DNA of 44,735 nt from sequence record PZ166175.1; one strand, written 5' to 3'. Below are positions 1,361 to 24,598 of the stretch, piece after piece. The first letter of the stretch is position 1. Each line of letters opens with the position of its first letter. Origin of the DNA: a phage. Both the position numbers and the translations under genes were made by a program. Below the pieces are notes generated by a model, which saw nothing but the letters and a program-made list of their open reading frames with translations, searched no databases and had not been told where the DNA came from.

Positions 1361-1867
1361 TTATAGCTTACTAATTACGGACTCCAGCGCTTCCTTCATG
1401 CTATCAACGTCGTTAGCTGTGGAGTTATTGCTAATCTTAATCTCCTGCGGCTTATCAATCCCTAGCTCTTTACCAACAATCGTAGAGTTGATGATGCCTG
1501 CAACGCCAAGCTGGTATTTCTGCTCGTAGATTACGTTATCGATAAACTCCATCACGTCAGAGTATCCAGCCTCAGTACGCCAGCGAGCGAATCTATTTAT
1601 ATTAACTCCCATGAATAGCGCCAGGCCAGTTAAGGTGAACACTCGAGGCTTGTGCACTAAACTCTCGCTAACCACGCCCTGGAATGCCGCCGTCTCAATG
1701 GCTTTGATTGCCTCATTCTCAGCCCATGAAAAGTATCTCACTGCAAAGTCAAATACCTCCTCGGGAGTGTACTTGCGGTTGATTGCCACCATGGCAATAT
1801 CGCCATACTTCTTGTTGTATAGCGCCTTGAAATTTCCCTCACCCATCTTTAATGCTGCTTTGCTCAT
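1361..1867 (-). CDS. terminase small subunit (putative)
   Basis: 168-aa ORF immediately upstream of TerL on the same strand; RBS AAGGAGG before the ATG; assignment by position. Confidence 0.5.
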   Translation of the reverse strand: MSKAALKMGEGNFKALYNKKYGDIAMVAINRKYTPEEVFDFAVRYFSWAENEAIKAIETAAFQGVVSESLVHKPRVFTLTGLALFMGVNINRFARWRTEAGYSDVMEFIDNVIYEQKYQLGVAGIINSTIVGKELGIDKPQEIKISNNSTANDVDSMKEALESVISKL

Positions 1868-2380: not shown

Positions 2381-2458
2381 TGGCGCTCCGCACTGGATTC
2401 GAACCAGTAACCTACGACTTAGAAGGTCGTTGCTGCTATCCGATTGAGCTAGCGGAGC
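2381..2458 (-). tRNA. tRNA-Arg (anticodon UCU), with encoded CCA
   Basis: hand-folded cloverleaf: 7-bp acceptor stem GCTCCGC/GCGGAGC, anticodon stem ACGAC/GTCGT with loop CTTCTAA, T-arm ACTGG-TTCGAAT-CCAGT, discriminator G, CCA. Confidence 0.85.
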
Positions 2459-3214: not shown

Positions 3215-3276
3215 TTGTTGGTAATGTCATTATATGCCATTCGTGTCAGATGCTTTTAGCTATTCGTGCTATTTTT
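3215..3276 (-). promoter_or_regulatory. early promoter cassette (palindrome + 22 bp + TATAAT)
   Basis: minus sense: AAATAGCACGAATAGCTAAA, 22-nt spacer, TATAAT. Confidence 0.5.
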
Positions 3277-3572: not shown

Positions 3573-3692
3573 TTATAGTTCGTTAGAATGCGTTTTAGCT
3601 TCATCTACTGATGCCGAAATTATGTAAATAATGGCGAAGCCTATAGACCAAAGTAACCACGGTAGAGCCTCAGCAAAAAGCTCGTCTATCAT
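3573..3692 (-). CDS. hypothetical small membrane peptide (39 aa)
   Basis: hand translation MIDELFAEALPWLLWSIGFAIIYIIS...; one hydrophobic helix; weak RBS. Confidence 0.3.
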   Translation of the reverse strand: MIDELFAEALPWLLWSIGFAIIYIISASVDEAKTHSNEL

Positions 3693-3717
3693 TAACCCTG
3701 TGTGCGTATCGCCACCC

Positions 3718-3915
3718 TCAGATTTTGTTAAGTTGCTCAAGAATTTCGTATGCTAGCTCTCGGGCCTGCTCTTCGGTTAAGTGAATGGTGTGAACCTGAG
3801 GTTCATCTCTCATCCCACACGCCTGGGCAATAATGAATGTTGCGTAGCCATCGAAGTGGTTGGCCTGGAGCTTTGGTTCTGATTGTTGAAATCTCATTTC
3901 TTCTTCCTCGTTCAT
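3718..3915 (-). CDS. hypothetical protein (65 aa)
   Basis: ORF track; promoter cassette directly upstream. Confidence 0.5.
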   Translation of the reverse strand: MNEEEEMRFQQSEPKLQANHFDGYATFIIAQACGMRDEPQVHTIHLTEEQARELAYEILEQLNKI

Positions 3916-5441: not shown

Positions 5442-5990
5442 CTACTTTGTTTTCTTAATCATTTCCTGATAAGCGTTAATCATTGTAACGGCGCCCTTAA
5501 GCTCTTCACCTTCCAAGCCCGCAACGCTTGGTGACAGCTTGAGTAGTCTAGACTTAAACTTTTCAATGATGGCCGCCTCTTTCTCTGCTTCCTGCTTCTT
5601 CTTCTCACGATTGCCGGTCCAGTGAGCGCCGTCCTCAATATAGATTACCAGGTATTTATCAGCACCATCGCCATCGAAATTACCCGGCCTGGTTTGCTCG
5701 CCTTCATCGTCAATCCAGATGAACTTGTAGCGCGCTCGCTTGTCGGCGTCTCGTAGTTCATTCATTCGCGACACGGTATTGTAGATGTACGAGTTCTTTA
5801 GTTCAGGCATCGCCCTGTCTGCCAGGTTTAGTATCTCGTCAGTCTCTTCGTCATACTCCATTTCGGGATATGGCTTGCCGCGAACAAGTTTGAATATCTG
5901 GCTTACCGGAACTTTGAACTCGCCGTTCTCAGACGCCATTGCGTTACGCACCATCTCACGGATAACTTCGCCAAGTGTTACTTTCTGCAT
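5442..5990 (-). CDS. hypothetical protein (182 aa), first gene of the leftward early operon
   Basis: ORF track; RBS GAAACGAGG. Confidence 0.55.
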   Translation of the reverse strand: MQKVTLGEVIREMVRNAMASENGEFKVPVSQIFKLVRGKPYPEMEYDEETDEILNLADRAMPELKNSYIYNTVSRMNELRDADKRARYKFIWIDDEGEQTRPGNFDGDGADKYLVIYIEDGAHWTGNREKKKQEAEKEAAIIEKFKSRLLKLSPSVAGLEGEELKGAVTMINAYQEMIKKTK

Positions 5991-6287
5991 GTTGATACCT
6001 CGTTTCGTTTACTTCGTTTCAGTGATTGCCATCTTGCCACTTGTTTACGTGTCGGTCAACGTATTTTTATGTCTATTCCATCGCGTATACGTTTTTTCGG
6101 CCTTCAAGGTAGCGTCAGCACTGGTTGTAAACGCGCCGTATCCCCTGTATACCGTTTTTGAGGGTACTTTCCTATATATGTGCCTTTTTATTCCTACAAT
6201 GTCATCCCTTTCCTACAAGTGTCAGAATATCTGCGCGGAACATATCAATTATCTCACCAATGATCGGTATACACAGTATACATATAT

Positions 6288-6308
6288 ATAATAATAATAA
6301 TAATAATA
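6288..6308. repeat. (ATA)7 microsatellite inside a block shared with 24125..24187
   Basis: ataataataataataataata read directly; paralogous block has (ATA)5. Confidence 0.8.
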
Positions 6309-6519
6309 AAGTAAAATGTTGATATATATAGATATTATATTGTATATCGTGTGTATATCTCGCGTAAAAACGTAGGTTAGTGTTCGCTAACTTTTGTGAC
6401 GACACTGAGTATACATGGGTTACGCGTATGCGAAAAATGGCCCGGCAAGAATAAAAATCAACTTGTATGGTAGTCCTTCAATCCTTCATTCACTCACCCA
6501 CCACTTCATTTCACTTTTC

Positions 6520-6605
6520 GCAACAATCAAAAACATCATTGCATCTGAAGCAATATTGCTATATGTGCAATAATCACGTGAATCATTGCAATATCTGCAA
6601 CAATA
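6520..6605. repeat. iteron-like array, five GCAAYAAT copies plus GCAATATTGC and CACGTG palindromes
   Basis: gcaacaatc, gcaatattg, gcaataatc, gcaatatct, gcaacaata within about 85 bp of non-coding DNA. Confidence 0.5.
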
Positions 6606-6616
6606 CATAAATCTTA

Positions 6617-6691
6617 CGAATAGCACTTTTTGCTAAAGACATTAGGGTCTGGTGGGGCTATAGTTAACTCACCAACAGCGAGGGTGTAGAT
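6617..6691 (+). promoter_or_regulatory. early promoter cassette (plus orientation)
   Basis: AATAGCACTTTTTGCTAAAG, 23 nt, TATAGT, then RBS and ATG at 6692. Confidence 0.5.
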
Positions 6692-6889
6692 ATGAAAGTA
6701 AAGGTTATTGAGCTTGATTTCTGTGGTGATATTTATGATGACGAGTATGAGTACTATGGCATCAATCAAGGAGGTGTGCATGAAGTGGTAACTACTTATC
6801 CGGACTTTGAGGCAATTGTAGTGGTTAACAAGTATGGCCGTAATGTTATGCTCTACAATAGAGAGGTTGAAATCTATGAAGAAAAATAA
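6692..6889 (+). CDS. hypothetical protein (65 aa)
   Basis: ORF track; cassette upstream. Confidence 0.5.
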   Translation: MKVKVIELDFCGDIYDDEYEYYGINQGGVHEVVTTYPDFEAIVVVNKYGRNVMLYNREVEIYEEK

Positions 6890-8278: not shown

Positions 8279-8352
8279 ATAGCACAAATTGTTAATGAAT
8301 TATAAGCGGTCGTTGTTATAATGGCCGCTCAGAAACAACACGGAGAGAAGTA
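8277..8352 (+). promoter_or_regulatory. early promoter cassette with consensus TATAAT
   Basis: AAATAGCACAAATTGTTAA, 22 nt, TGTTATAAT (extended -10), then RBS GGAGAG and ATG at 8353. Confidence 0.5.
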
Positions 8353-17266: not shown

Positions 17267-17749
17267 ATGAATGCAGTAGACAAGCGAACCATTAACGGCA
17301 ATAACGGAACCATCCGCACCGAAGACAAAAAGAAACGTAAACGACCTTCAGGCTACTACGTTTTAAAAGATGAAGTAAGGGCCGGGCTACGCGCGCGGCT
17401 AGAGATTGTTCTTGATTTCTTCGGCACAAAGGCGAATATCGCAAAGCAGTTAAAGGTAACACCACAGGCCGTAGAAGAATGGTTTAAGCGCGGCATGATT
17501 TCTGCGCGTGGCGCCCAGCTATCGCACAACTACTATAAGCGAAATGGAGAAGGCTTTCGCGCTACATTCTGCCGCCCAGACCTGCAATTCGACGGTAACG
17601 GCAAGCCGCTAACCCTGCGGTGCAAAAAACGTCATATGCTGCGTGTTGTTACTGAGGCCGAATTAGCCACCAAGCCAGAGTGTCGATCATGGCGCAAGAT
17701 TAAGGCCGCTAACGAGGCAGCACGAAAAGCTAAAGAGCAAGGGAAATAG
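17267..17749 (+). CDS. putative DNA-binding protein (HTH)
   Basis: ORF track; segment TKANIAKQLKVTPQAVEEWFKRG resembles an HTH; basic N-terminus. Confidence 0.45.
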   Translation: MNAVDKRTINGNNGTIRTEDKKKRKRPSGYYVLKDEVRAGLRARLEIVLDFFGTKANIAKQLKVTPQAVEEWFKRGMISARGAQLSHNYYKRNGEGFRATFCRPDLQFDGNGKPLTLRCKKRHMLRVVTEAELATKPECRSWRKIKAANEAARKAKEQGK

Positions 17750-24367: not shown

Positions 24368-24598
24368 ATGACTAACTTAATTAAATCAGCAATCATTGCC
24401 GCGGCAACAATCATGATGGTAGGTTGTTCTTCTGGCCCTCGCCCTGATGGTTGGTGCGCAACGTCCTCAAACGGCGTGTGCGTAGCTAAATGGAAAGGTG
24501 GCGTAGTTGTTCCGGCTGGTGAAATTGACATTCGCTACGATGGAATTAAAGGCTCCGGTGGCTCCGTTCGTGATTATGGCTCTAAGGAGTGGAATTAA
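24368..24598 (+). CDS. outer-membrane lipoprotein, Cor-like superinfection exclusion candidate
   Basis: ORF track 24248..24598 with start moved to ATG after RBS; signal peptide with lipobox MVGC; 76 aa. Confidence 0.5.

Follow-up and report, generated by a model that had tools for sequence, protein, structure and literature searches.

The window, by which we mean the whole analysed stretch of 44,735 nucleotides from a T1-like coliphage (Drexlerviridae, subfamily Braunvirinae), harbors an array of inverted repeats that is real, confined to a single locus and non-coding, and whose half-sites are under purifying selection across three subfamilies. Its repeat unit is the 8-mer half-site GCAAYRAT, which alternates in orientation and is separated by 7-nt spacers, giving a period of 15 bp. 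Judged from the sequence and from the genome ends of related phages, there is about an even chance that the array forms the recognition and assembly part of the pac (packaging-initiation) region, serving a small terminase of the P22 gp3 type. An earlier note on this DNA had described the cluster as iteron-like and as resembling a replication origin or an operator array. In place of direct iterons we found inverted dyads.

Architecture and genomic setting of the array

The array is located in a gap of ~700 bp without a conserved ORF between the divergent early operons, in agreement with its earlier placement upstream of the rightward early genes. The first rightward ORF lies at 6692-6889 (plus strand) and the first leftward gene at 5442-5990 (minus strand). 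The latter encodes a conserved, acidic DUF7174 protein, which would be the first gene product on the packaged-first side and has homologues in Rtp1, TLS gp01 and Rao1 gp01; its T1 homologue shows a weak AcrF2-like match, and the protein may be an anti-defence DNA mimic. Further to the left a tRNA-Arg(tct) gene (2381-2458, minus strand) separates the small early genes from terS, an arrangement shared with relatives. The small terminase TerS (1361-1867, minus strand) belongs to the P22 gp3 family (PF16677, 4e-13; PDB 3P9A, 2e-15) and is the candidate binder of the array if the latter serves packaging. No close relatives of TerS were found outside Drexlerviridae.

For a 3-kb stretch around the array the closest sequences were those of 2725-N35, the 'Campylobacter' phage A110b and Veterinaerplatzvirus isolates (87-93% identity). 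The records MG065688, PP134917 and PQ433353 include Campylobacter phage A110b and Pseudomonas phage PsgS01F, which are close relatives over the region searched, and in the same set of records the array region is present at 78% identity in a 143-kb Enterococcus phage record. The host labels or the assemblies of these three may be unreliable.

Four 15-bp dyads of the form TTGC-N7-GCAA, with 11 bp between core centres, lie within 6505-6604 and are spaced by 30, 17 and 30 bp, so that the array is mirror-symmetric around 6554/6555. The outermost dyad on the left, U1 (16.1 bits), combines the degenerate half-site TTCATTTC (6505-6512, minus strand) with the right arm GCAACAAT (6520-6527, plus strand), in which GCAACA is invariant in 11 relatives. 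In Rtp, Sd1, phiEB49, MSK and TR1 the outer half-site at 6505-6512 reads (T/A)TCATTGC or ATAATTGC. Dyad U2 (6539-6553) starts from the half-site ATCATTGC (GCAATGAT on the minus strand; 6535-6542, minus strand), which is invariant in relatives. Its right arm overlaps the left arm of U3 (6556-6570) in the palindrome GCAATATTGC (6550-6559; GCAAT|ATTGC), so that the two central dyads share the symmetry centre of the array. The right arm of U3 is GCAATAAT (6567-6574, plus strand). After a 7-nt spacer (6575-6581), U4 (6586-6600; 28.3 bits) follows with the left arm ATCATTGC (6582-6589, minus strand) and the right arm GCAACAAT (6597-6604, plus strand).

These positions bear out the earlier description in part. 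The perfect palindrome is present as GCAATATTGC, and GCAA-type octamers cover 6520-6604, which corresponds to the reported cluster within about 85 bp. The five reported copies of GCAAYAAT are reduced to three exact ones (6520, 6567 and 6597), and five forward copies are obtained with the looser GCAAYAWY. Three reverse-strand copies (ATCATTGC at 6535 and 6582, and the second arm of the palindrome) had been missed, as had the strict phasing. The hexamer CACGTG, to which attention had also been drawn, is indeed found in the spacer (6575-6580), but this spacer is variable and relatives read CATGTG, GAGATG, ACAGAG or CATGCT instead; because it is not conserved we regard it as a chance palindrome.

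The exact octamer GCAAYAAT occurs eight times in the window where 5.6 copies are expected, and is thus not enriched genome-wide. Likewise, the density of GCAA/TTGC tetramers (8 per 100 bp) is unexceptional compared with simulated maxima, which have a mean of 6.3 and reach 9. The paired and phased pattern behaves differently. For ATYRTTGC-N7-GCAAYRAT with up to two mismatches, five matches were found in the window vs 0.33 expected, a number reached in none of the shuffles, and four of the five fall in the array; matches to the inverse arrangement of half-sites were confined to the array in a scan of the window. With a weight matrix made from the dyads of ten phages, the dyads of the array scored 26-28 bits and the degenerate one 16 bits, while the best score elsewhere in the window was 12.5 bits. 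The phased pattern and the high-scoring dyads therefore occur once only, at 6505-6604, as is expected of a pac site.

On these grounds it is exceedingly improbable that the cluster has no specific function and arose from base composition or from a recent local duplication. Such a by-product would fit the tetramer density, the lack of enrichment of the exact octamer and the substitutions in the central sites of the C119 group and the UNVERIFIED record A110b, but it fails to account for a phased paired pattern far above chance and for half-sites that are much better kept across subfamilies than spacers and flanks.

The only other spot with two good half-sites is 24392-24414 (ATCATTGC-CGCG-GCAACAAT), where the spacer measures 4 nt and not 7. 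This pair belongs to the beginning of a coding sequence and follows a promoter of the DR type described below at a distance of ~90 nt; it is probably due to chance (estimated probability ~0.1). No match to the array was detected in 5,426 complete E. coli genomes, scanned for satellites and chromosomal copies. Across 185,579 species genomes only single chance matches in unrelated taxa were obtained with the array pattern, which is too permissive for a collection of this size. IMG/VR yielded six loci only, all from known isolates.

Several other explanations were examined and rejected. The short ORFs crossing the array (6415-6573 and 6467-6610 on the plus strand, 6486-6626 on the minus strand) do not correspond to a frame that is open across 11 relatives. 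A structured RNA or cruciform is not indicated either: no Rfam family was hit (best E 0.032, below gathering), folding z-scores were -1.3 (RNA) and -0.35 (DNA), and the arm classes GCAAYAAT and GCAATGAT retain the same mismatches with no compensation, which argues against a hairpin. Tandem promoters were discarded, as no sigma-70-like site is present within 6500-6610. As to host factors, the array is devoid of an exact DnaA box, an IHF consensus and a GATC cluster, and it does not appear to fit the consensus sequences of CRP, Fur, PurR and CytR.

Conservation of the half-sites and genome ends of related phages

Conservation was quantified in an alignment of 11 phages of the Braunvirinae and Rogunavirinae as mean pairwise identity by column class. 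Half-sites reached 0.91, compared with 0.72 for spacers, 0.65 for the left flank and 0.65 for the promoter and leader on the right. The half-sites together with the 30-bp dyad spacing recur in the Tunavirinae (T1, LeonhardEuler, IME167, SH2, Shfl1 and IME347), and looser versions of the half-sites are found in a Klebsiella Webervirus. The subfamilies compared are otherwise 50-60% identical at the protein level. A lack of conservation in relatives, which according to the earlier note would have refuted its reading, was thus not observed. The central sites are the least constrained, with substitutions in the C119 group and the UNVERIFIED record A110b; the palindrome GCAATATTGC is kept in most relatives and is changed in Sd1 as well as in these two.

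TLS, a member of the Tempevirinae, is without GCAA dyads and has other repeats in the equivalent interval. At the junction of the TLS record (49,750-49,902 and 1-70) these comprise AATCA-type short repeats, a TCACG-N9-CGTGA dyad and a tandem pair of TAGACCAATCGGTC. Since the repeats in the dyad interval of TLS differ, recognition sequences may be specific to each subfamily.

A position in the window equivalent to the packaging-initiation ends of relatives was located at 6470-6479 (minus strand), directly left of the array; all end positions used here are those of relatives, and several are only boundaries of GenBank records. In the GenBank record of TR1 (OP087522) the homologous 150 bp (3595-3744) are labelled 'the initial packaging site of the headful packaging mechanism', and the TR1 paper reports a packaging site determined with PhageTerm at 3,615, which aligns to 6478. 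For MSK, the PhageTerm start published in the MSK paper (36,862, forward direction) corresponds to 6470|6471 in the alignment and is directed away from the array. The record of Rao1 starts in the same alignment column as the TR1 site (6478). Altogether, the reported ends of MSK, TR1, Rao1 and others lie 8-75 bp left of the array, with record boundaries at distances from the first dyad of 8 nt (Shfl1), 22 nt (SH2), 43 nt (IME167 and Henu5_2) and 75 nt (CEB_EC3a and ZL19). Between dyads and ends the T1 and Rtp groups have unrelated DNA, yet the distance from dyad to end is similar.

Other records open within the array or to its right. In the T1 record an annotated terminal repeat_region of 2,800 bp begins with base 1, which coincides with the first nucleotide of the dyad GTTGCAtggtgTGCAAC, and the first base of the Rtp record adjoins the central palindrome. 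Both place a reported end at the array, in keeping with a pac there. On the other hand, the records of T1, Rtp, Rogue1 and ESCO41 open within or right of the array and not left of it, which speaks against a role in packaging initiation. The 43 records of a single study (MK9072xx) have scattered starting points.

The restriction-mapped pac of TLS, as described in the TLS paper, falls in the interval equivalent to the array, and the SU57 paper places the pac of T1-like phages in this untranslated region. That a pac lies in this gap is therefore public knowledge, given the annotations of T1 and TR1 and the papers on SU57 and TLS. In the literature searched we did not find the phased dyad array described as a candidate pac recognition element, nor a pac sequence defined at motif level for T1. 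The TLS authors assigned pac by resemblance to P22, and the P22 pac 22-mer that they quote contains one 8-mer of the array region, ATCTGAAG (6543-6550). This likeness was rejected as probably coincidental, because ATCTGAAG lies in a spacer that is variable among relatives.

The inferred cut zone is joined to the array by a G-free tract of 46 nt (6474-6519, plus strand). It is the third-longest run in the window that lacks one of the four bases, and it starts at the position equivalent to the PhageTerm ends of the relatives. Comparable G-poor tracts are present at the same place in TLS and T1.

Packaging, operator and origin as candidate functions

Because the array adjoins the packaging starts of relatives, it is likelier to be a packaging-start signal than a replication origin. 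Late in infection, TerS would assemble on the four phased TTGC-N7-GCAA dyads of concatemeric DNA, to which it might be recruited by an accessory dimeric DNA-binding protein. The large terminase would then be positioned at the array and introduce the first cut a few tens of bp to the left, at ~6435-6480 where the G-free tract starts, and headful packaging would proceed leftward through the small early genes, the tRNA gene and the terminase genes. That the terminase binds the array and that this binding directs the cut is inferred.

Dyad symmetry with 11 bp from centre to centre is the classic geometry for a dimeric HTH or RHH protein, whereas P22 gp3 is a ring-shaped nonamer that recognises an asymmetric 22-bp site. 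The dyads would hence suit a dimeric HTH protein better than a gp3-type ring, and this counts against recognition by TerS. Many pac sites are located in or adjoining terS, so that the distance of 4.6 kb between array and terS also argues against a packaging function, as does the fact that TLS encodes a homologous TerS (47-51% identity) yet is without GCAA dyads. In phage lambda, Drexler's 'esp' site for T1 packaging reportedly lies between P and Q. When the lambda P-Q interval was scanned with the dyad matrix no comparable cluster was detected; the best score there was 9.7 bits and the best in all of lambda was 13.0 bits, elsewhere. This counts against a packaging function but is not decisive.

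The same geometry makes the array a candidate set of operators. The four dyads would then be bound by a dimeric phage regulator, most plausibly a Cro-like HTH protein or else an unrecognised small early protein, that shuts off or times the divergent early operons. We rate this, the main rival to a packaging function, as somewhat unlikely, although the operator idea of the earlier note stays a live competitor. The four adjacent 15-bp dyads, with 11 bp between half-site centres and spacings of 30, 17 and 30 bp, match the layout of an operator cluster, and pac would lie close by as a coincidence, the genome having no other large non-coding gap.

A candidate protein is encoded at 17267-17749 (plus strand). 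This 160-aa Cro-like protein is the only HTH-like protein found in the phage; it is a homologue of T1 ST23, and homologues are called 'transcriptional regulator' in T1 and TLS. Its match to P22_Cro (4e-6, 26.9 bits) is below the Pfam cut-off of 30.2 bits, which weakens the case for an operator. The gene lies between those of an SNF2-type helicase and a primase and has DR promoters on both sides. The protein is a candidate binder of either the DR palindrome or the GCAA dyads. Its putative recognition helix reads (S/T)xQxV in three sequences with dyads (the window, Rao1 and T1) vs NLKTV in TLS, which has none; with one negative case this correlation is anecdotal. Moreover, whichever two subfamilies are compared, identity is ~50% for TerS as well as for the Cro-like regulator, so that covariation of motif and protein does not discriminate between the two as binders.

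Transcription signals next to the array bear on the same question. A DR-type promoter cassette is located at 6620-6664 (plus strand), composed of the element ATAGCACTTTTTGCTAAA (6620-6637), which begins 15 bp past the end of the array, and TATAGT (6659-6664). The TLS paper described a 21-nt 'direct repeat' whose role was left open. ATAGCACTTTTTGCTAAA is a direct repeat of this TLS type, for which the window contains 19 matches (up to three mismatches) vs 6.5 expected, nearly all in the direction of transcription. When aligned, the cassettes consist of the repeat, ~22 nt, a TATAGT-like box, a conserved leader (…ATCGAAAC…), an RBS and ATG. The 18-nt element ATAGCACnnnTTGCTAAA (TAGCA-N5-TGCTA), whose cassette carries the leader TAccccATCGAAAC, starts at 3255, 3954, 4507, 5334, 6620, 7450, 8279, 11731, 14736, 17237, 17746, 22640, 24284, 30792, 35980 and 44499. 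It is too far from the -10 box to act as a normal -35, which suggests a phage-encoded dimeric activator.

That the array is positioned 15 bp upstream of the first rightward promoter of this type would suit an operator, and so would the genome-wide DR element, a palindrome with the same geometry as the dyads, from which a dimeric DNA-binding factor is to be expected in the phage. The dyads, however, overlap no predicted -35 or -10 element: the interval 6500-6610 is free of sigma-70-like promoters and the nearest cassette extends from 6620. Eighteen other DR promoters are without such an array, which is consequently not part of this promoter type. There is also no dyad near the regulator's own gene, and control of transcription leaves the similar distance between ends and dyads in two subfamilies unexplained. 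Should the operator reading prove correct, the array would represent the first regulatory switch to be defined for the early region of T1.

Further repeats are present in the gap. This second set, at 6137-6152, 6265-6281 and 6409-6424 and also at 6420-6432, comprises GTATAC-containing inverted repeats (82-88% complementary) and TTACGCG-type motifs; at the equivalent place T1 has four copies of ATTACGC and Rao1 has copies of GCGTAAC.

A replication origin, with the repeats as binding sites for an initiator or helicase loader and with melting of the AT-rich tract at 6277-6350, is very unlikely. It is consistent with clustered sites at ~170 bp from an AT-rich tract that contains an (AAT)n run and, at 6312 on the minus strand, the sole exact match to the IHF consensus in the gap, with a location between divergent early operons where transcriptional activation is plausible, and with the gene for a replicative-type helicase downstream; judging by the papers on SU57 and TLS, T1-like phages have so far no identified origin. 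On the other hand, the sites are inverted dyads of 8-mers in alternating orientation and not tandem direct iterons of ~17-22 bp, there is no exact DnaA box and a single GATC in the 700-bp gap, no initiator domain (Rep or O type) was found in neighbouring ORFs, and changes in GC skew just follow the direction of transcription. The helicase also fails to track the dyads, since its identity is 73% between the window and TLS, which has no dyads, and 58% between the window and T1, which has them.

The features on which the origin had been based in the earlier note change accordingly. The AT-rich tract exists, although at ~170 bp from the repeats it is not beside them. It comprises TATATA runs and an (AAT)7 microsatellite (6288-6308) whose repeat number varies in Rao1, MSK and Rtp, and it holds leftward and rightward sigma-70-like matches. 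The 527-aa protein, which had been taken for a putative initiator, is a DUF3987/phrog_2373 'DNA helicase' in which nothing marks it as origin-binding, and no solved relative of it was found by sequence. Its gene does not adjoin the array: the two are 1.7 kb apart, and the gene has a DR-type promoter of its own at 8279.

Packaging initiation and early regulation might also be combined in one element. The array could represent a pac of a kind hitherto undescribed for P22-gp3-type terminases, in which four phased dyads nucleate the packaging complex, possibly via a dimeric adaptor such as the Cro-like protein, and in which the same array ties the onset of headful packaging to the silencing of the divergent early operons; the cut would be measured ~30-45 bp from the outermost dyad into the G-free tract. 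We consider this combined function unlikely.

Comparison with known packaging sites and operators

T1 was among the first phages for which pac-initiated headful packaging was shown. A conserved motif of GCAAYRAT half-sites in TTGC-N7-GCAA dyads would allow Drexlerviridae genomes to be opened at a biologically meaningful point and would offer a starting point for understanding DNA recognition by small terminases of the gp3 type. It could also help to predict pseudo-pac sites and generalized transduction by these phages, which are common contaminants of laboratories and fermentations.

The lambdoid operators OR and OL, bound by Cro and CI, resemble the array in having several adjacent dyads of 15-17 bp in a divergent control region of a phage that encodes a Cro-like HTH protein. 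They overlap promoters and lie adjacent to the regulator gene, whereas the array overlaps none and the gene for the Cro-like protein is 10.7 kb off.

The pac site of P1 is, like the array, a single-copy cluster of short palindromic or inverted elements over ~100-160 bp. In P1, PacA-bound TGATCA/G hexamers flank the cleavage zone, Dam methylation is required and IHF assists. If the array is a pac, both would share a first terminase cut adjoining or between the elements, followed by headful packaging. In contrast to P1, the elements of the array are 8-mers without GATC, no IHF consensus lies inside, and the terminase families are unrelated.

In the pac region of the Bacillus phage SPP1 (pacL, pacC and pacR), repeated boxes bound by the small terminase G1P flank the cut on the side that is not encapsidated, at a distance of tens of bp. 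Similarly, the first packaged end of MSK and TR1 does not include the array. The boxes of SPP1 are direct repeats with intrinsic bends, while the array is made of inverted dyads, and a search of its packaged side revealed no clear counterpart of pacR.

With P22 the phage shares a true gp3 homologue as TerS, and both would package by the headful mechanism with imprecise first cuts. In P22, however, the pac is one asymmetric 22-mer that forms part of terS, whereas the four dyads of the array are 4.6 kb from terS, and the sole 8-mer in common is ATCTGAAG. As a pac, the array would be more like the sites of P1 and SPP1, which are built from repeats, than like that of P22.

A homologous counterpart is found in TR1. 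The authors of that genome annotated the region as a protein-coding hypothetical ORF with a PhageTerm peak and left the repeats undescribed; no frame is conserved there in relatives. The 150 bp at 3595-3744 of OP087522 can be aligned directly to the window and carry the same dyads.
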